A DNA stretch of 64,000 bases from Chloroflexota bacterium (GTDB lineage Bacteria > Chloroflexota > Anaerolineae > Promineifilales > Promineifilaceae): contig JAJRYT010000114.1 of assembly GCA_024275635.1 (NCBI GenBank), positions 28,292 to 92,291 on the forward strand, read 5' to 3'. Within the stretch, counting starts at the first letter, position 1. Each line of letters starts with the position of its first letter. The translations under genes and the position numbers were made by a program. This document shows, in pieces, positions 31,409 to 38,259 of the stretch. The notes beneath the pieces are model-generated. The model had not been told where the DNA came from, searched no databases, and saw only the letters and a list, made by a program, of their open reading frames with translations.

Positions 31409-31494
31409 GCGCTAACAGCGCCTGTAGCGACAAAAAATTGTCGCTGTCCAATAGCTTATCAATGAAAATTTTGTTTTGTGTACAAGAATTTTTT

Positions 31495-31543
31495 GACACG
31501 AATTAGGATGGTTTTAATTCGTGCTATTCGTGAAATTCGTGTC
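31495..31543. repeat. hairpin, CACGAATT family
   Basis: gacacgaatt ... aattcgtg...aattcgtgtc. Confidence 0.75.
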
Positions 31544-31570
31544 GAAATCTTCTCTGGCTTGTCCAGGTCA

Positions 31571-31668
31571 GGCCATAGAACAAAAAAAGCGGCGCCGAGA
31601 CATCTCGACGCCGCTTTATTATCTATTCACTACTTTGAACCATGTCACTCCCCCCACTTTCCCATTTT
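31571..31668. repeat. copy B of the ~100-bp repeated element (includes the tRNA-Leu terminator)
   Basis: Aligns with 27429-27536: shared ggccatagaac, GC-rich hairpin, ctactttga and gtcactcccc blocks. Confidence 0.7.
31586..31618 (-). terminator. Rho-independent terminator downstream of tRNA-Leu
   Basis: Minus strand aaagcggcgtcgaga-tg-tctcggcgccgcttt followed by TTTTTTT. Confidence 0.65.
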
Positions 31669-31700: not shown

Positions 31701-31785
<85 letters not shown>

Positions 31786-31856
31786 GGGGTATAGCGGCAT
31801 TTTACCAATTCAAAGCCAAAAGTCAACAAAAATCTAAAATAGGCTAAAATTAGCGC

Positions 31857-32423
31857 ATGAGCCAGACACCCATTTACACCATCGGCTACGGGGCGCGGGA
31901 TGTGGACGAATTCATTGCCGTCCTGAAAACATATCAGATCGCTTTTCTGATTGATGTGCGCTCCAAGCCTTATTCCCGGTACAAGCCGGATTTTTCTAAA
32001 CAAGCGTTGGCAAAGCATCTCCAAACCAACGACATTCGCTATGTGTTTATGGGGGATTTGTTGGGCGGACAACCGGATAACCTGGCTTGTTACACTAATG
32101 GCAAGGTAGATTATGATAAAGTGCGCCAACAGCCGTTTTTTCAGGCGGGAATCGGCCGTTTACAAACAGCCTGCCAGCAGAGCCGACGGGTGGCGCTTAT
32201 GTGCAGCGAAGGCAAGCCAGAACTATGTCATCGCAGCAAACTCATTGGCGAAACATTAACAAGCGCAGGCATTACCGTAACCCATATTGATGAGAAAAAT
32301 CAACTTACCACACAAGAAAACGTTATTTTACGCCTACACAAAGGACAGCCTAGTTTATTTAATGATTTTTTTCAATACACATCTCGAAAACGATATGTAA
32401 ATGACGACGAGGAGGGAGAATGA
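31857..32423 (+). CDS. DUF488 domain protein
   Basis: [36 protein letters not shown]...[10 protein letters not shown]...[15 protein letters not shown] is the DUF488 pattern. Confidence 0.8.
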
Positions 32424-32905
32424 TCAAAATTGTGACGATTGGAGTCTATGGTTTTACTGAGGATGGGTTTTTCCAAGCCTTACAGAAAGCAAAGGTGGAT
32501 ACATTTTGCGATATCCGGCAGCGGCGCGGCGTGCGCGGCGCTAAATATGCGTTTGTCAACAGCAAACGGCTGCAAGAAAGATTGACCGAGTTGGGAATTC
32601 GTTACCTGCATCGCAAAGATTTAGCCCCGACAACGGCCGTTCGCCAACGTCAAAAAGAGGCCGACAAAGCTAACAAAACAGCTAAACGGCAGCGGACAGC
32701 CTTAGGATCGGCTTTCATCGCCGCTTACCAGGCAGAAATTCTGGCCGATTTCGCGCCGCAATCGCTGCTGGACGACTTGGATCCTGATACGCAAACCGTC
32801 GCCCTTTTCTGCGTAGAACGGGAACCGGCCGCCTGCCACCGTTCGTTAGTCGCCAATAAATTGCAGCGAGAGTTGGGTTTAGCAATGGAGCATATCGTGC
32901 CATGA
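32420..32905 (+). CDS. DUF488 domain protein (divergent second copy)
   Basis: [37 protein letters not shown]...[21 protein letters not shown] overlap with both neighbours. Confidence 0.75.
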
Positions 32906-35811
32906 AAGTCGTCATTGTTGCTAAAACGAGGATGGGGAGCGGGGCTTGTGTTGGGGGAATCACGTTTGACGGCCGTTCCCTGCGCCTCATCACGCCCGAC
33001 ATGGATAGCCATGATCATTTCAACATGGAATATAACATCGGTGATGTGTGGGATGTAGATTTTACACCCGCCGCAAACCGTCCCGCCCCGCACACAGAAG
33101 ATGTAATCGTCCACAGTAAACGCAAACTTCCCCCCATTGACAATGTGGCGGAATTCATCGAATATCAAATGCTGCCTCAGGAAGGCGGGGCGACTGTGTT
33201 ATTCGACGGGTTGGCCCAGACCACTAAAGCAGGCGTTCAGTACATTGCCGAGCGCGCAGGGACACCCGCCTACAGCACAATGTTCTGGCGGCCCGACCAA
33301 CCTTTAACCCGCGACGATGACGCCAAACGCATTCGCTATCGCTACCCAACACCCGACGGCGGACGTACGCTGACTTTTGTCGGTTTCCAGGAGCCGTTGG
33401 CTGAGATTCCGGCGGGAACGCTGCTGCGCGTTTCTCTGGCGCATTGGTGGCGGCCCAAAGATATGCCCGACGGCGAACTGCGCTGCTACGTTCAGTTGTC
33501 CGGCTGGTATTTGCCGGAGAGTTTAGAAAATGAAGATTGGCAACCAGATATTGACGCCGACCAAATTCCAATCTCCAATCTCCAATTGCTAGTCTCTAAA
33601 CCGCGCACGCCGGTTCCCCTTGATCTCTCTACCGCCCAGTCCCTCCTCAAAAAAGTGTTTGGCTATGATGAATTCCGGTCGCTGCAGGCGGACATCATCC
33701 AAAATGCGCTGGACAAGCGGGACTCGCTGGTGATTATGCCCACCGGCAGCGGCAAATCATTGTGCTACCAGCTGCCGGCGCTCATGTTCCCCGGTCTCAC
33801 CGTTGTTGTGTCGCCGCTGATTTCGTTGATGGAGGATCAGGTGGCGCAGTTGCGGGAAGCGGGGGTAACGGCCGTTTACCTCAATAGCACGCTCTCTTAC
33901 GACCAATATCTGTACACTACCAACCAAATCCGATCCGGGGCCGTCAACCTGCTCTACGCCGCCCCCGAAACCCTGATGCGCCCCGAAACCTTGCTGCTGC
34001 TGGAACAAAGCCGGGTGGACTGCCTGACCATTGATGAAGCCCACTGCATCTCCGCCTGGGGACACGATTTCCGGCCTGAGTACCGCCAGTTAGTCGAACT
34101 GCGCCGCCGTCTGCCCGACGCCGTCTGCCTGGCCGCCACCGCCACCGCCACCGACCGTGTGCGCCAGGACATCAAAACCTCGTTGGGCATTCCCGCCGCC
34201 GGAGAATTTATTGCCAGCTTCAACCGCGAGAACCTGTTCCTGGCCGTCGAACCCAAAACGGCCGGTCTGCGGCAAACGTTGGCCTTCCTGGACGCCCATC
34301 GAGACCAAGCGGGTATCATCTACTGCGCCACCCGCAAACAGGTGGACGCGCTGACGAATGACCTGGCGGCGAACGGCTGGCCGGTTTTGCCCTATCATGC
34401 CGGACTGGATGCCGGGACGCGCCAACGTAACCAGCGCCGCTTCACGCATGAGGAAGCGGTGGTGATGGTCGCCACAATCGCCTTTGGTATGGGCATTGAC
34501 AAATCAAACGTGCGCTTTATTTTGCATTACGACCTGCCCAAAAATCTGGAAAGTTATTACCAGCAAATTGGCCGCGCCGGGCGCGATGGCCTGCCCGCCG
34601 ACTGCCTGCTCCTGTTCAGCTACAGCGATGTGCAGACGATCAATTATTTCATCATGCAAGCCGCGCCTGACCAGCAAATCGGGGCGCGGATGCGGCTGGA
34701 GGCGATGCTGCGTTTTGTGGAGACGAATGTGTGCCGGATACGGCCGTTACTGGCCTATTTTGGCGAAACCTACGCGACCGAAAACTGCCAAACCTGCGAC
34801 AACTGCACCGCTGAAGCGGAAGATTTAACCGATTTGACCATCCCGGCGCAAAAATTCCTCTCCTGCATCAAACGCACCGGCGAACTGTTCGGCGTCAGCC
34901 ACATCATTGACGTGCTGCGCGGCTCCCAATCGCAAAAAGTGTTACAGCGGCGGCATGACCGGCTTTCCACCTACAACATTGGCCGCGAATTTTCCAAGAA
35001 GGAGTGGCAGCATTTGTCGCGCCAATTCATCCAGCAGGGGTTGATTGCGCAGGACATGGAACATGGCAGCCTGAAACTGACCCCCCAAGCGTATGCCGTC
35101 TTCAAAGGGGAAAAGGTGATGGGGGTTCTGCCAAAGCGGGAAACGGCCGTCGCCCACACCCAAGCCCCCCTCGCCCACGACCCGGTTCTGTTTGGCCTGC
35201 TGCGCCAGAAACGCACCGAACTGGCTGCCGCTGCCGGTGTACCGCCCTATGTCATCTTCTCTGATCGTTCCTTAGTGGAGATGGCCGCCTACTTCCCGCA
35301 ATCGCGGCCGAATTTCGGCGGCATGTACGGCGTCGGTCAGGCTAAATTGGAAAAGTACACGGACGAATTTTTACCCATCATCCAGGCCTACTGCCGGGAA
35401 CATGACATCGCCGAAAAACCAAAGGGGGGCGGGGCCGTATCGCCCGCCTGCCGCATCGTGACCGGCCTCAAAGGGCGCACGGAAGCAGTCATCGAGGCGT
35501 ACAATGCCGGGCATGCCATCCCCGACATTGCCGCCGATTTGGGGGTAAAGACGGGGACGGTGTTAGGCCATTTATGGAAAGGGGTACAGGCGGAACGGCC
35601 GTTACGCGCCGACGGCCTGCTTCAACTTTCCCAACTCGCCGCGGAAGAACAACAGCGTGTCCTGGACGCTTTCGCCGAACTGGGAACTGATTTCTTGCGT
35701 CCGGTGTTTGAAGCGATGGGGGAAACAGTCAGCTACGATGAGTTGAAAATTTTGCGGTTGGTTACGGCCGTGATGAATAATAACCCACATACAGAAGATA
35801 GAAGTAATTGA
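32902..35811 (+). CDS. recQ: RecQ-family DNA helicase with a ~205-aa uncharacterised N-terminal domain and C-terminal HRDC plus helix-turn-helix-like tail
   Basis: FGYDEFRSLQ...MPTGSGKSLCYQLPAL...DEAHCISAWGHDFRPEY...ATATA...VATIAFGMGIDK...QQIGRAGRDG, a Zn-binding Cys cluster, RQC and HRDC (ELAAAAGVPPYVIFSDRSL). Confidence 0.9.
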   Translation: MKVVIVAKTRMGSGACVGGITFDGRSLRLITPDMDSHDHFNMEYNIGDVWDVDFTPAANRPAPHTEDVIVHSKRKLPPIDNVAEFIEYQMLPQEGGATVLFDGLAQTTKAGVQYIAERAGTPAYSTMFWRPDQPLTRDDDAKRIRYRYPTPDGGRTLTFVGFQEPLAEIPAGTLLRVSLAHWWRPKDMPDGELRCYVQLSGWYLPESLENEDWQPDIDADQIPISNLQLLVSKPRTPVPLDLSTAQSLLKKVFGYDEFRSLQADIIQNALDKRDSLVIMPTGSGKSLCYQLPALMFPGLTVVVSPLISLMEDQVAQLREAGVTAVYLNSTLSYDQYLYTTNQIRSGAVNLLYAAPETLMRPETLLLLEQSRVDCLTIDEAHCISAWGHDFRPEYRQLVELRRRLPDAVCLAATATATDRVRQDIKTSLGIPAAGEFIASFNRENLFLAVEPKTAGLRQTLAFLDAHRDQAGIIYCATRKQVDALTNDLAANGWPVLPYHAGLDAGTRQRNQRRFTHEEAVVMVATIAFGMGIDKSNVRFILHYDLPKNLESYYQQIGRAGRDGLPADCLLLFSYSDVQTINYFIMQAAPDQQIGARMRLEAMLRFVETNVCRIRPLLAYFGETYATENCQTCDNCTAEAEDLTDLTIPAQKFLSCIKRTGELFGVSHIIDVLRGSQSQKVLQRRHDRLSTYNIGREFSKKEWQHLSRQFIQQGLIAQDMEHGSLKLTPQAYAVFKGEKVMGVLPKRETAVAHTQAPLAHDPVLFGLLRQKRTELAAAAGVPPYVIFSDRSLVEMAAYFPQSRPNFGGMYGVGQAKLEKYTDEFLPIIQAYCREHDIAEKPKGGGAVSPACRIVTGLKGRTEAVIEAYNAGHAIPDIAADLGVKTGTVLGHLWKGVQAERPLRADGLLQLSQLAAEEQQRVLDAFAELGTDFLRPVFEAMGETVSYDELKILRLVTAVMNNNPHTEDRSN
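33567..33597. repeat. GGAGACT-family heptamer tract embedded in-frame inside recQ (domain linker)
   Basis: ttccaatctccaatctccaattgctagtctct encodes IPISNLQLLVS between the N-terminal extra domain and the helicase core. Confidence 0.75.
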
Positions 35812-35977: not shown

Positions 35978-36721
35978 GTGACAATGAAACAAAGCTACTA
36001 TTTTGAGCCAACACCGCGCTGGATCCGGGCAAAATTTGGCGGCAAGATTATTGCCGACAGCAAACGCGCCTTATTGGTTTGGGAGGGCGGCGGGCCGCGT
36101 ATCCATTACTATTTCCCGCAGCAAGATGTGTGCATGGATTATTTGCATGAGACGGGACGCAGCGGCCTGAAACGGCAATCGTGGCACGTAAAGGTTGGTG
36201 ATCAGATAGCCGAAAATGCAGCCTGGAGCCATCTTGAACCTCGTGAAGAATTGAAGGGCATTGAAGGGTATGTGGCTTTCCGTTGGAGCAAACTAGACCA
36301 TTGGTATGAGGAAGAGGAAGAACTGTTTGTTCATCCGCGTGACCCGTATCACCGGGTTGATACTTTGCCTAGTTCCCGCCATATCAAAGTGGTGGTAGAT
36401 GGCGTAACGGTAGCGGAGACAACACGGCCGTTTCTTCTCTTTGAAACCGGCTTACCAACACGTTATTATATCCCCCCCGAAGATGTAAGACAGGAGTTGT
36501 TGGAACCGACAAACACCCAGACCAGTTGCCCTTATAAAGGCATTGCCTCTTATTGGTCGGTAAAAGCAGGCGACCAGGTGCATAAAGATATTGTTTGGAG
36601 CTACCCGGAACCCATCGTCGAAATTCCCAAAATTAAAGGTTTGCTGAGCTTTTACAATGAAAAAGTAGCCATTTATGTGGATGGCGAACTGGAACATATA
36701 ACGGATTCTCCCTTTGCCTAA
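35978..36721 (+). CDS. DUF427 domain protein (two DUF427 repeats)
   Basis: IRAKFGGKIIADSKRALLVWE...YYFPQQDV... and a second copy VVDGVTVAETTRPFLLFETGLPTRYYIPPEDV...CPYKGIASYWS. Confidence 0.75.
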   Translation: MTMKQSYYFEPTPRWIRAKFGGKIIADSKRALLVWEGGGPRIHYYFPQQDVCMDYLHETGRSGLKRQSWHVKVGDQIAENAAWSHLEPREELKGIEGYVAFRWSKLDHWYEEEEELFVHPRDPYHRVDTLPSSRHIKVVVDGVTVAETTRPFLLFETGLPTRYYIPPEDVRQELLEPTNTQTSCPYKGIASYWSVKAGDQVHKDIVWSYPEPIVEIPKIKGLLSFYNEKVAIYVDGELEHITDSPFA

Positions 36722-37484
36722 AAAAATTGGCTTTTGGCTGTTCTTCATTTTATTTTTGGCGGCCTGCCGTTCGGCAGCCATTGAACCGGGAACGGCCGTT
36801 AATACGAATTTAGACACGGCCGTTCCTGTCGCTGCCCCACTGGAGAAACCGATCATGCGTTATGAAACGATGACCTTGTTCGCTGGAACGACCGTCCGCT
36901 ATGCTATCGTTTTGCCGGCCGGATTTACCCCCGAACAGCCCTATCCCACGCTGCTGGCGCTGCCACCGGGCGGGCAAACACAGCCAATGGTGGAAGCCGG
37001 TCTGGGCTATTGGCAGGCCGAAGGGCAAAAACGGGGCTGGGTGGTAGTCAGCCCCATCGCGCCGGACAGCGTGCTGTTTTTCCAGGGATCGGAAGCGCTG
37101 CTGCCAGAGTTTATGGATGGGATTGCGGCGCGGGTTCGAGTGGAGAACGGCCGTTTCCACCTGGCCGGAGTCAGCAACGGCGGCATCAGCGCCTTTCGCA
37201 TTGCCCTCAACGAGCCAGAGCGGTTCCAATCAATGCTGGTCGTGCCTGGCTTACCGGGGACAGATGACGACTTTGCCCGACTCGACAGGTTGGTAGACCT
37301 GCCCATCGCCATGTTTGTGGGTGAAAATGATACAACCTGGCTGGTCCGGATGCAGGCCACGAAAGAGGAGTTACGCCGGTTAGGAGCTGATGTATCATTG
37401 GAAATTGTGCCTGGCGAAGGTCATGTCATTCAGAGCCTGGGAGATGGGGCGCGCTTTTTTGACTTTTTCGATTCCCATCGCTGA
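36714..37484 (+). CDS. secreted alpha/beta hydrolase (esterase/PHB-depolymerase-like)
   Basis: Lipobox-like FILFLAAC. Nucleophile elbow LAGVSNGG. C-terminal ...PGEGH catalytic His context. TTG start. Confidence 0.65.
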   Translation: MPKKIGFWLFFILFLAACRSAAIEPGTAVNTNLDTAVPVAAPLEKPIMRYETMTLFAGTTVRYAIVLPAGFTPEQPYPTLLALPPGGQTQPMVEAGLGYWQAEGQKRGWVVVSPIAPDSVLFFQGSEALLPEFMDGIAARVRVENGRFHLAGVSNGGISAFRIALNEPERFQSMLVVPGLPGTDDDFARLDRLVDLPIAMFVGENDTTWLVRMQATKEELRRLGADVSLEIVPGEGHVIQSLGDGARFFDFFDSHR

Positions 37485-38217: not shown

Positions 38218-38224
38218 CGTTACC

Positions 38225-38257
38225 AGAAATCCGATTTCTTGGAGAAATCGGATTTCT
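38225..38257. repeat. perfect 15-bp-stem hairpin
   Basis: agaaatccgatttct-tgg-agaaatcggatttct, between the tex stop and the Mut7-C gene start. Confidence 0.8.
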
Positions 38258-38259
38258 AA

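Follow-up and report, generated by a model that had tools for sequence, protein, structure and literature searches.

Two DUF488 genes (D1 and D2) and the recQ gene that follows them in a Chloroflexota bacterium are a dedicated unit, co-inherited across phyla. With moderate confidence, we read the three genes as encoding one RecQ-centred DNA-processing complex that would also be the cell's only RecQ pathway. The order D1-D2-DuOB::RecQ, in which DuOB is a tandem-OB domain at the helicase N-terminus, was kept in 68 of the 70 related loci whose upstream DNA was long enough. Cassette loci came from Chloroflexota/Anaerolineae, Poribacteria, Latescibacterota, Verrucomicrobiota and Planctomycetota. 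The DUF488-RecQ linkage described in an earlier note on this DNA is therefore not sporadic, and its idea of a dedicated unit stands, backed also by D1::RecQ fusions in the same genus. Two loci (L071 and L095) had DuOB::RecQ without D1 or D2 nearby.

Operon layout

The analysed stretch of 64,000 nucleotides is called the window. In it, D1, D2 and recQ form a three-gene operon (Table 1), chained by ATGA overlaps at 32420-32423 and 32902-32905, just as the earlier note had it. Such overlaps suggest stoichiometric co-expression. In 77% of 60 loci, D1 and D2 either overlapped or were at most 10 nt apart. The D2 start, within the ATGA of the D1 stop, is preceded by GAGGAGGGAG. The D1 ATG starts 7 nt past the end of a candidate -10 element, and no Shine-Dalgarno sequence was found between the two; D1 may thus be translated from a leaderless message.

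Table 1 Features of the cassette and its upstream neighbour, in window coordinates.
Feature	Position	Strand	Description and source
tRNA-Leu(CAG)	31701-31785	-	ARAGORN; divergent neighbour, context only, outside the conserved unit
Promoter-like site for tRNA-Leu	31826-31799	-	Divergent; overlapped by the D1 promoter-like site; pattern match only
Promoter-like site for D1	31823-31850	+	TCAACA-16 nt-TAAAAT; consensus scan, pattern match only
D1	31857-32423	+	188 aa; DUF488, PADLOC PDC-M45B type
D1 conserved loop	32202-32234	+	C116-S-E-G-K-P-E-L-C124-H125-R126; orthologue alignment, model
D1 tail motif	32343-32360	+	G-Q-P-S-L-F, residues 163-168; orthologue tails
D1 tail motif	32379-32396	+	T-S-R-K-R-Y, residues 175-180, then acidic end DDEEGE
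D2	32420-32905	+	161 aa; DUF488 'active N3' subclade (DUF488-N3a), PADLOC PDC-M45C type
D2 conserved loop	32810-32842	+	C131-V-E-R-E-P-A-A-C139-H-R141; sequence comparison
RecQ	32902-35811	+	969 aa
DuOB	32902-33507	+	RecQ residues 1-202, two tandem OB folds; Pfam 87.5 bits, profile positions 1-210 of 210
Linker, DuOB to helicase core	33508-33678	+	Acidic, Trp-containing, …ENEDWQPDIDADQIP…; sequence
Canonical RecQ core	33679-35382	+	Pfam, TIGR01389, motifs
DEAD			RecQ residues 260-420; Walker A GSGKS at 282, DEAH at 378
Helicase_C			RecQ residues 462-563
Zinc-binding			RecQ residues 574-636; CQTCDNC at 629
RQC			RecQ residues 642-739
HRDC			RecQ residues 763-827
HTH_40	35488-35754	+	RecQ C-terminus; Pfam 53.3 bits

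An orthodox RecQ with a tandem-OB domain

Pfam recognized DuOB, DEAD, Helicase_C, RecQ_Zn_bind, RQC, HRDC and HTH_40 domains in the RecQ protein, which scored 714 bits against the NCBIfam recQ equivalog TIGR01389 (cut-off 640). The helicase, zinc-binding, RQC and HRDC domains, the Walker A and DEAH motifs and the cysteine cluster are those of the canonical E. coli-type RecQ. Unlike the canonical enzyme, the window protein has the 202-aa DuOB and the HTH_40, and its gene is coupled by translational overlap to the two DUF488 genes. HTH_40 was found also in a fused RecQ (G003) and a plain RecQ (G006) of relatives, and is thus a lineage trait rather than a cassette-specific one.

The genome (93.65%-complete) has no RecQ other than DuOB::RecQ, and most cassette-carrying relatives have no RecQ besides the cassette copy. 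The earlier note had set the unit apart from a housekeeping RecQ and left room for a second, canonical recQ; neither idea is supported.

The AF2 model of DuOB (pLDDT 93.2) was all-beta. Its best PDB fold matches were the HIN-200 tandem-OB DNA binders (E 7e-5), and BRCA2 OB folds were matched as well. HIN-200 proteins (AIM2, IFI16, MNDA, p202) are DNA sensors of mammalian innate immunity and, like DuOB, have two consecutive OB barrels; at TM 0.35-0.42 and 8-11% sequence identity, the resemblance is one of architecture alone, with no evidence of common descent. This N-terminal region, which joins the DUF488 pair as a third partner, was absent from the earlier note.

Two DUF488 subtypes

D1 and D2, the only DUF488 genes in the genome, are two distinct DUF488 subtypes, each with an invariant Cys-x-Glu-x5-Cys-His-Arg loop (C-x-E-x5-C-H-R in both). 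D1 scored 81 bits against Pfam DUF488 and 175 bits, full length, against PADLOC PDC-M45B. D2 scored 56.5 bits against DUF488, 32.6 bits against DUF488-N3a (cut-off 27) and 47.9 bits against PDC-M45C. Both DuOB (PF22557) and DUF488-N3a (PF22751) were matched above their curated cut-offs in window proteins, and these family names indicate that a DUF488 subclade and a dual-OB partner had already been recognized computationally. The description of DUF488 as uncharacterised was thus half right: Pfam splits out both families, and PADLOC lists the triad of DuOB and two DUF488 proteins as candidate PDC-M45. No biochemical study of a DUF488 protein, of DuOB or of a RecQ of this subtype was found in the searchable literature.

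In the D1 loop, C116, E118, P121, C124, H125 and R126 were invariant among 43 orthologues; among 73 sequences, at least 95% kept the D2 loop. The D1 model (pLDDT 89.6) gave weak fold matches to PTP, dual-specificity phosphatases and tetrapyrrole-methylase-like domains, with phosphatase-fold TM values of 0.40-0.47 in PDB and at most 0.53 in the viral library (E > 1e-3 except for one match). In the modelled secondary structure, a strand (112-116) and a helix (125-136) flank the loop, which would lie at the site of the phosphate-binding loop of PTP-fold enzymes; from this we infer a catalytic role.

The D1 tail carries a QxSLF motif that resembles the bacterial sliding-clamp-binding consensus QL[SD]LF, and is a putative clamp-binding peptide. 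The pattern Q[LPMQT][SDNRP][LM]F occurred in 60 of 65 cassette D1 tails, and was not found in 70 RecQ ORFs or six D1::RecQ fusions. Residues 161-170 were modelled at low confidence (pLDDT 66), and this segment is probably flexible. An SRKRY-like motif was present in 64 of the 65 D1 orthologues, with residues 175-179 modelled as a strand packed against the domain.

Fusions of D1 to RecQ

In same-genus relatives, D1 is fused straight to RecQ, and D2, DuOB and the D1 tail are gone. DUF488::RecQ::HTH_40 proteins were listed for G002 and G003 (same genus), G007, G010, G015, G020 and G023, although G020 is of the cassette form in the RecQ tree and the alignment. Neither D2 nor DuOB was found genome-wide in fusion-bearing genomes.

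The fusion proteins, found in Anaerolineae of the same genus and the same family (e.g. G003, 960 aa), share with the window an orthologous RecQ core, the D1 domain (47-62% identity) and the HTH_40 tail. Identity of the core is 69-70% in the same-genus G002, G003 and G010, and 57-59% in the other fusions. They differ by lacking D2, DuOB and the QxSLF/TSRKRY tail, and by the covalent joining of D1 to the RecQ linker. A residue-level alignment of the G015 fusion with D1 and DuOB::RecQ of G020 showed that precisely the D1 tail, D2 and DuOB had been lost, with the acidic linker retained.

In the RecQ tree, the fusions were scattered inside the cassette clade, where well-supported branches force at least three changes; G015 (fusion) was sister to G020 (cassette; support 100/99). 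The D1 tree likewise paired these two. Both gene trees thus show that the cassette collapsed to D1::RecQ at least three times. Order-level relatives have D1, D2 and a stand-alone DuOB with a TPR::RecQ-like helicase of a separate clade, which is a second, independent helicase link.

Relation to PDC-M45 and defence

According to Payne et al. 2024 (bioRxiv 10.1101/2024.01.29.577857), the PADLOC phage-defence candidate PDC-M45 (cassette CAS_00153) consists of three families, and PDC systems are defined by embedding in BREX, DISARM or type I R-M loci. The window encodes the same three modules: DuOB (M45A), D1-type DUF488 (M45B) and DUF488-N3a (M45C). The two differ in gene order, B-C-A::RecQ in the window and A-B-C in PDC-M45, and in DuOB, which forms the N-terminus of a complete RecQ in the former and a ~230-aa protein in the latter.

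It is possible, if rather doubtful, that the triad is an anti-phage or anti-plasmid defence that would sense or modify incoming foreign DNA, and to which RecQ was recruited as motor or effector. The matches of D1 and D2 to PDC-M45 models and the definition of PDC systems by defence loci speak for this. On the Agrobacterium plasmid pAt1D1108a, the M45A protein was confirmed to be a stand-alone DuOB (209.8 bits to Pfam DuOB, 294.8 bits to PDC-M45A). Its triad has an integrase, a toxin-antitoxin gene and CBASS as neighbours, and a triad on a Rhodothermus marinus plasmid adjoins cas1, cas2 and cas6. The cassette also lacks a fixed genomic context (no conserved flanking gene; top flanking family in 4 loci) and crosses phyla, with Poribacteria and Latescibacterota copies nested within the Chloroflexota clade of the RecQ tree. 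A DUF488 link to spacer acquisition points the same way: deletion of E. coli yeaO changed CRISPR spacer acquisition (one preprint).

PDC-M45 is, however, one of 145 untested candidates, and the window DuOB matched none of four M45A models. Unlike PDC-M45, the window locus is neither in nor beside a defence system among the adjacent genes scanned: Pfam revealed no defence gene or integrase in the seven flanking genes, which include ECF sigma/anti-sigma, DUF427, esterase, Mut7-C and Tex. A dedicated immune helicase would usually come as an extra copy, whereas this one is the genome's sole, orthodox RecQ.

Proposed mechanism

In the RecQ-centred complex, RecQ would unwind DNA 3'->5' while DuOB holds it. 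D1 would be a Cys-dependent, PTP-like phosphoesterase or phosphotransferase, and D2 its partner or a second enzyme. D1 might remove or transfer a phosphate-linked group at a helicase-exposed DNA end or nick, candidate targets being a 3'-phosphate or a sugar-phosphate adduct; this assignment of substrate and chemistry to D1 and D2 is conjecture from sequence and models. The flexible D1 tail (QxSLF, TSRKRY and acidic end) would recruit the complex, the simplest target being the beta sliding clamp that remains at stalled forks or gaps. The tail could instead dock onto DuOB or D2, since it is lost exactly when these are lost.

An unlikely alternative is that the targets of D1 and D2 are small molecules, such as nucleotides or sugar phosphates derived from NAD/ADP-ribose, and that the two proteins provide, take away or sense a ligand by which RecQ is regulated. 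Neither protein has a recognizable DNA-binding domain of its own (Pfam), as this reading would expect. Steady pairing with a tandem-OB DNA binder and RecQ-family helicases, the covalent fusions and the clamp-like tail nevertheless argue for action on or at DNA.

Composition and genomic setting

The GC content was 46.2% in D1, 51.9% in D2, 57.5% in RecQ and 56.7% in the window, so that the DUF488 genes are AT-richer, as the earlier note observed. A smaller gradient running the same way is typical of the family: in 49 of 57 related loci, D1 was lower in GC than the RecQ core (mean difference 2.7 points), and D1 < D2 < RecQ was found in relatives too. The window has 113 copies of the genomic palindrome ACGGCCGT (1.77 per kb). 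The DUF488 genes had been called palindrome-free, which is true only in a weak sense: D1 has no copy (about one expected), D2 one (at 32633) and RecQ six.

The cassette does lie directly beside tRNA-Leu(CAG), 71 nt from the D1 start codon, but the notion of a tRNA landing site lacks support. That the DUF488 genes or the whole cassette integrated recently and site-specifically at this tRNA is very improbable, even with D1 and D2 5-10 points of GC under the window mean. The DUF427 and esterase genes downstream of RecQ had no DNA match in four same-genus genomes, and the nearest cassettes belong to other genera (L050, with 81% identity in the RecQ core, and G024, with 79% over the whole RecQ), same-genus copies being of the fusion type at about 69-70%; these points also favour a recent arrival. 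Integrases, however, usually insert at the 3' end of a tRNA gene, whereas the cassette lies to the 5' side of this one. Pfam showed no integrase in the seven flanking genes scanned, none of 58 other loci (each with at least 1.5 kb upstream) had a tRNA upstream of D1, the GC gradient is shared with relatives, and the same-genus genomes are so rearranged that an empty site is undefinable.

Chance adjacency, with two unrelated DUF488 genes having landed in front of an ordinary recQ in this one strain, has just the sole-copy status of recQ in its favour and is rejected given the conserved order, the fusions and the presence of DuOB, a known partner of DUF488 pairs, inside the RecQ protein. The earlier note had named much the same scenario as contrary to its reading; its sole-copy half is true and its strain-specific half false.

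Significance of the triad

The module is widely conserved and already catalogued computationally, with a candidate function. DuOB, D1 and D2 would also work without RecQ on plasmids, which would make RecQ an added motor and the triad the enzymatic core of the proposed complex. As RecQ-less triads sit in defence islands, a role in conflict is favoured, at least for these.

Gene organization and composition of the cassette

The cassette consists of two DUF488 genes, D1 and D2, followed by recQ. Its position and that of neighboring features are listed in the table. The earlier note had described the three genes as chained by ATGA overlaps, and both junctions, D1/D2 and D2/RecQ, do read ATGA across stop and start. 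GAGGAGGGAG precedes the D2 start. A promoter-like TCAACA-16-TAAAAT, found by pattern match only, ends 7 nt 5′ of the D1 ATG. The D1 message may be leaderless, because no Shine-Dalgarno sequence lies between this site and the ATG. A divergent promoter-like site, again a pattern match only, was found for the tRNA-Leu gene.

Features of the cassette and its surroundings (positions within the 64,000-nt stretch)
Feature	Position	Strand	Description
D1	31857-32423	+	ORF, 188 aa
D2	32420-32905	+	ORF, 161 aa
RecQ	32902-35811	+	ORF, 969 aa
tRNA-Leu(CAG)	31701-31785	opposite strand	71 nt from D1 start
Dispersed repeat	31449-31572		~120 bp, internal palindrome; between anti-sigma gene and tRNA-Leu terminator
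Linker	33508-33678		after DuOB
DUF427 and esterase	35978-37484		downstream of recQ
Palindromic sequence	38223-38259		35 bp; between Mut7-C and Tex genes

The DUF488 genes were confirmed to be AT-richer, with a GC content of 46.2% in D1 and 51.9% in D2, versus 57.5% in recQ and 56.7% in the window. D1 was also lower in GC than the RecQ core in 49 of 57 related loci, by a mean of 2.7 points, and the gradient D1 < D2 < RecQ recurred in the nearest relatives. Part of the AT-richness therefore belongs to the gene family, which weakens GC content as a sign of recent transfer. The description of both genes as palindrome-free held for D1 (no ACGGCCGT, with about one expected), but not for D2, which has one copy at 32633. 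The argument from palindrome poverty was underpowered and carries no weight.

The 8-mer palindrome ACGGCCGT was present in 113 copies in the window (1.77 per kb), and CGGCCG in 226 copies. This excess, far above chance, suggests a genome-wide signal or a bias related to restriction-modification.

The genome's only RecQ carries a dual-OB domain

RecQ matched the NCBIfam equivalog TIGR01389 with 714.4 bits (cut-off 640.2 bits) over profile positions 2-591 of 591. The full Pfam RecQ domain set (helicase lobes, Zn-binding, RQC, HRDC) scored above cut-off, with DuOB, the Pfam dual-OB domain, before it and HTH_40 after it. The motifs include Walker A GSGKS at 282, DEAH at 378 and the zinc cysteine cluster CQTCDNC at 629. 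By model search, it was the sole RecQ-family protein above cut-off in the whole assembly (93.65% complete), and the remaining RecQ-model matches were ordinary DEAD-box helicases. D1 and D2 are the genome's only DUF488 genes. A sole housekeeping RecQ, with DUF488 genes inserted in this strain only, had been put forward as the case against a dedicated complex. The first part of that description applies here, the second does not.

Two other assignments of the helicase were rejected. DpdF, the helicase of 7-deazaguanine DNA modification, scored 194.9 bits on the NCBIfam model (cut-off 550), where the helicase core alone matched, and the PADLOC DpdF matches at 685 bits cover the generic RecQ core. 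PsyrT likewise matched by its generic helicase core alone.

Residues 1-202 of RecQ matched DuOB (PF22557) with 87.5 bits (cut-off 27 bits) over positions 1-210 of 210. The AF2 model of this domain was all-beta, with a pLDDT of 93.2. Its best PDB fold matches were the HIN-200 tandem-OB DNA binders MNDA, AIM2, IFI16 and p202 (E down to 7e-5, TM 0.35-0.42), and the OB folds of BRCA2 came next. The model is compatible with a tandem OB that binds DNA, but goes no further than that. When 1.84 billion representative proteins were searched with the DuOB profile, only 863 clusters (50% identity) were found; among the clusters listed, most were stand-alone proteins of 200-230 aa.

The linker after DuOB contains a recurring acidic-aromatic patch, EDWQPD in the window and DDLWLPDY, ADFWPADE or DFDDDFFY in relatives and in fusion proteins. 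It loosely recalls the acidic C-terminal tip of SSB, which binds E. coli RecQ.

D1 and D2 represent different DUF488 subtypes

DUF488 is a large, prokaryote-wide family, of which E. coli YeaO is a member. Both D1 (81 bits) and D2 (56.5 bits) belong to it (PF04343, gathering cut-off 22.2 bits). D2 also passed DUF488-N3a (PF22751, "active N3 subclade"), with 32.6 bits at a gathering cut-off of 27. D1 reached 17.2 bits on this model, below the cut-off, and is therefore of a different DUF488 subtype.

The D1 model was confident (pLDDT 89.6). In fold comparison, no solved structure was close to it, and even the best matches were weak (TM 0.34-0.53). In the PDB, these were tetrapyrrole-methylase-like domains and a Sulfolobus PTP-fold phosphatase; in the viral library, they were PTP and dual-specificity phosphatases. 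The matches to PTP and dual-specificity phosphatases had E values of 1e-3 to 2e-2 and TM values of 0.34-0.53. PDB sequence searches with D1, D2 and DuOB returned nothing meaningful.

The invariant D1 residues C116, E118, P121, C124, H125 and R126 lie in a loop that leads from strand 112-116 to helix 125-136. PTP-fold enzymes bind phosphate in the loop between the central strand and the next helix. The spacing in D1 is C-x9-R or C-H-R, compared with C-x5-R of the PTP type. D2 has the same pattern as D1, C-x-E-x5-C-H-R, and by this shared motif both proteins look catalytically competent.

The cassette is inherited as a self-contained unit

DuOB was detected in 13 of 40 same-class relatives. In the carriers of family f1 and in G038, it forms the N-terminus of a RecQ of ~850-1120 aa, with two DUF488 genes upstream, first one of the D1 type and then one of the D2 type. 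A wider scan, with one genome per species and two DuOB peptide patterns, yielded 373 confirmed loci, of which the best 80 were examined. These were mostly from Chloroflexota (Anaerolineae: Ardenticatenaceae, Promineifilaceae, Caldilineae); the other phyla were Poribacteria, Latescibacterota, Verrucomicrobiota and Planctomycetota. DuOB and the RecQ core shared a single ORF in 78 of the best 80.

The earlier note had named sporadic linkage as an outcome that would refute its reading. The linkage is not sporadic: D1 then D2 were found upstream, on the same strand, in 68 of the 70 loci with at least 1.3 kb of upstream sequence. The two exceptions, L071 (genome G017) and L095 (Caldilineaceae ACE_CHL8), had no D1 or D2 in the 1.4-6 kb of upstream sequence. 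G017 (83% complete) encodes DuOB::RecQ with neither DUF488 gene, and had no DUF488 match genome-wide. Both loci are possible natural "helicase-only" variants. With start sites estimated from the alignment, the D1/D2 junction was overlapping or ≤10 nt in 77% of loci, and the D2/RecQ junction in 27%.

The cassette RecQs of five loci from Poribacteria and Latescibacterota (L113, L116, L117, L120, L124) formed one well-supported clade within the Chloroflexota sequences. This placement in the tree suggests that the cassette was transferred as a whole from one phylum to another.

The neighboring tRNA gene had been read as a landing site for accessory DNA. This idea of a tRNA-linked island was not supported, as none of 58 other loci had a tRNA upstream of D1, and the cassette lies on the 5′ side of the tRNA, not on the 3′ side expected of such an island. 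No integrase was present among the neighbor genes scanned. A fourth conserved partner gene was not found, the best flanking family occurring in 4 loci, and none of the window's flanking genes adjoined the cassette in 20 related loci. The cassette is therefore a self-contained unit, and the tRNA a local accident. No empty site could be defined, because the flanks were scattered over different contigs in four same-genus genomes.

Several features of the surrounding DNA were recorded. The dispersed repeat beside the tRNA-Leu gene matched its own genome 54 times, over many contigs and at 74-92% identity; these 54 include partial or reverse-strand hits to one and the same site. Far more matches were seen in G002, of the same genus. 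The repeat resembles a MITE-type element. The palindromic sequence between the Mut7-C and Tex genes recurred in same-genus genomes at 91-100% identity, in either orientation and over many contigs, and looks like a REP-type intergenic repeat. The segment with DUF427 (two NTP_transf_9 repeats) and the esterase had no DNA match in four same-genus genomes, and Mut7-C and Tex, which come next after the esterase, matched them at 72-81%. The stretch with DUF427 and the esterase may be variable.

Some copies of the cassette were damaged. In L033/L064 (G016:C20, Anaerolineae MAG ACE_NR_CHLO5), D1 was split in two ORFs, D2 was separated from DuOB by a 680-bp gap, and RecQ was split in two, with an in-frame TAG; this is probably a decaying cassette. 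In L049, L083, L087, L104 and L123 (MFD "uncultured Chloroflexia" MAGs), RecQ was broken into several overlapping ORFs, for which assembly frameshift errors are a more likely cause than real pseudogenes.

Fusions of D1 with RecQ arose repeatedly

In the same-genus genomes G002 and G003, and also in G007, G010, G015, G020 and G023, RecQ carries a DUF488 domain of the D1 type fused to its N-terminus, in a single protein of ~910-970 aa. Pfam confirmed this D1::RecQ architecture for G003. The fusion genomes are without DuOB and D2, save G020, which has both forms. G006 has a plain RecQ.

In the maximum-likelihood tree of RecQ cores, the fusions were scattered within the cassette clade, well-supported branches required three or more changes, and the fusions formed one group in none of the bootstrap trees. 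The G015 fusion was sister to the G020 cassette (support 100/99), and the D1 tree gave the same pairing. When aligned to the G020 proteins, the G015 fusion follows D1 up to just before its tail, continues with ~10 residues, and then resumes in the RecQ linker after DuOB. What is lost each time in the fusion form is exactly the D1 tail, D2 and DuOB. As natural Rosetta-stone fusions, these proteins indicate that D1 works with RecQ, and that D2 and DuOB come and go together. Within G020 (L029 and L042, on contigs C24 and C13), the cassette and fusion RecQ cores were not each other's closest relatives.

A second helicase partner was found in three order-level relatives, where D1, D2 (N3a) and a stand-alone DuOB precede a helicase of ~1000 aa. 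This protein has an N-terminal TPR region followed by RecQ-like DEAD, Zn, RQC and HRDC domains. It falls in a separate, deeply divergent clade, so DuOB, D1 and D2 have joined RecQ-family motors on two or more occasions.

The D1 tail resembles a sliding-clamp-binding motif

Residues 163-168 of D1 read GQPSLF, with QPSLF at 164-168. The bacterial sliding-clamp-binding consensus is QL[SD]LF. The relaxed pattern Q[LPMQT][SDNRP][LM]F was matched by 60 of 65 D1 orthologs, most of which read QLSLF or QPSLF. It is followed by a TSRKRY motif, present in 64 of 65 orthologs, and by an acidic end. The segment was modeled with a low pLDDT of 66, as expected for a linear motif. The clamp-like pattern was absent from all 70 RecQ ORFs and from all six D1::RecQ fusions. 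Since the tail vanishes exactly when DuOB and D2 are both lost, it may alternatively dock onto one of these two proteins rather than onto the clamp.

A stand-alone DuOB protein is the M45A component of PDC-M45

The PADLOC defense candidate PDC-M45 comprises the families M45A, M45B and M45C. D1 matched PDC-M45B (PDLC04657) with 175.2 bits over positions 1-174 of 204. D2 matched PDC-M45C (PDLC04658) with 47.9 bits, and PDC-M19A slightly higher, with 55.2 bits. The window's DuOB had no match at E ≤ 1 to the PADLOC models, including those of PDC-M45A (PDLC04653-04656), and a search of the genome and five relatives with PDLC04656 (M45A) found nothing. PDC-M45A is a separate gene, whereas in the window the homologous domain occurs only as the RecQ N-terminus.

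The identity of M45A was settled indirectly, through plasmid homologs of D1. On Agrobacterium pAt1D1108a, two DUF488 genes (279 bits on M45B and 242 bits on M45C) are preceded by a 233-aa "hypothetical" protein that matched both Pfam DuOB (209.8 bits) and PDC-M45A (294.8 bits). PDC-M45A is the DuOB protein. This plasmid triad neighbors a CBASS system, a toxin-antitoxin gene and an integrase. In Rhodothermus marinus pRMAR01, D1, D2 and DuOB (236 aa) follow one another in this order and adjoin cas1, cas2 and cas6. The Rhodothermus D1 keeps GQLNLF at the tail; in the Agrobacterium D1, the sequence there is degenerate.

Discussion

We lean slightly towards a mechanism in which RecQ would unwind DNA and DuOB would hold it, while D1, together with D2, would be a phosphoesterase or phosphotransferase that depends on Cys and targets a phosphate-linked group where DNA ends or is nicked. 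Recruitment of the complex to the sliding clamp would fall to the D1 tail.

The main alternative, a function of the cassette in defense, appears rather unlikely. It would agree with the plasmid contexts of the triad and with its place in PADLOC, where PDC-M45 belongs to a set of 145 "phage defence candidates" proposed on the grounds that they are embedded in BREX, DISARM or type I R-M loci (10.1101/2024.01.29.577857). However, the cassette RecQ is the only one of the genome, and its neighborhood in the window is ordinary (ECF sigma/anti-sigma, DUF427, esterase, Mut7-C, Tex). The repair and defense readings are not exclusive, since an end-processing module of the repair type could be used for either purpose.

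A more far-reaching proposal is tentative, and we hold it to be possible though doubtful: that DuOB and the DUF488 pair are a clamp-recruited DNA-end phosphoesterase, welded in these Chloroflexota to the cell's only RecQ. D1, kept time and again in the covalent fusions when D2, DuOB and the tail are lost, would be the catalytic partner of RecQ, D2 and DuOB would be a detachable targeting adaptor, and the main RecQ repair would run through an enzyme set that elsewhere is plasmid-borne in immune islands. If true, a single module would link fork repair, a housekeeping task, with anti-phage defense, and DUF488 would gain its first biochemical function.

With the Pfam names DuOB and DUF488-N3a and PADLOC's PDC-M45, the module is already catalogued computationally; the two Pfam families presumably derive from Burroughs & Aravind 2023. 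In the searchable literature, we found no paper joining DUF488 and RecQ and no biochemical study of DUF488, and its main texts made no mention of DUF488-N3 or PDC-M45. According to one preprint, E. coli without yeaO (DUF488) acquires CRISPR spacers in a skewed manner; its authors note that no literature on the protein exists. This analysis adds that the cassette RecQ is the genome's only one, that a collapse to D1::RecQ, exact to the residue, occurred repeatedly in the same genus, and that the tail is lost along with D2 and DuOB. It also adds a direct check of PDC-M45A as DuOB and the rejection of a tRNA island.

The fixed, translationally coupled tie to the well-understood RecQ motor offers a concrete test bed for DUF488. 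RecQ is routinely studied by biochemistry, its partners are small and look soluble, and the D1::RecQ fusions are a natural minimal version. Such work would reveal the chemistry of DUF488 on nucleic acids, and would tell whether PDC-M45 is a defense system or a repair module riding on mobile DNA.
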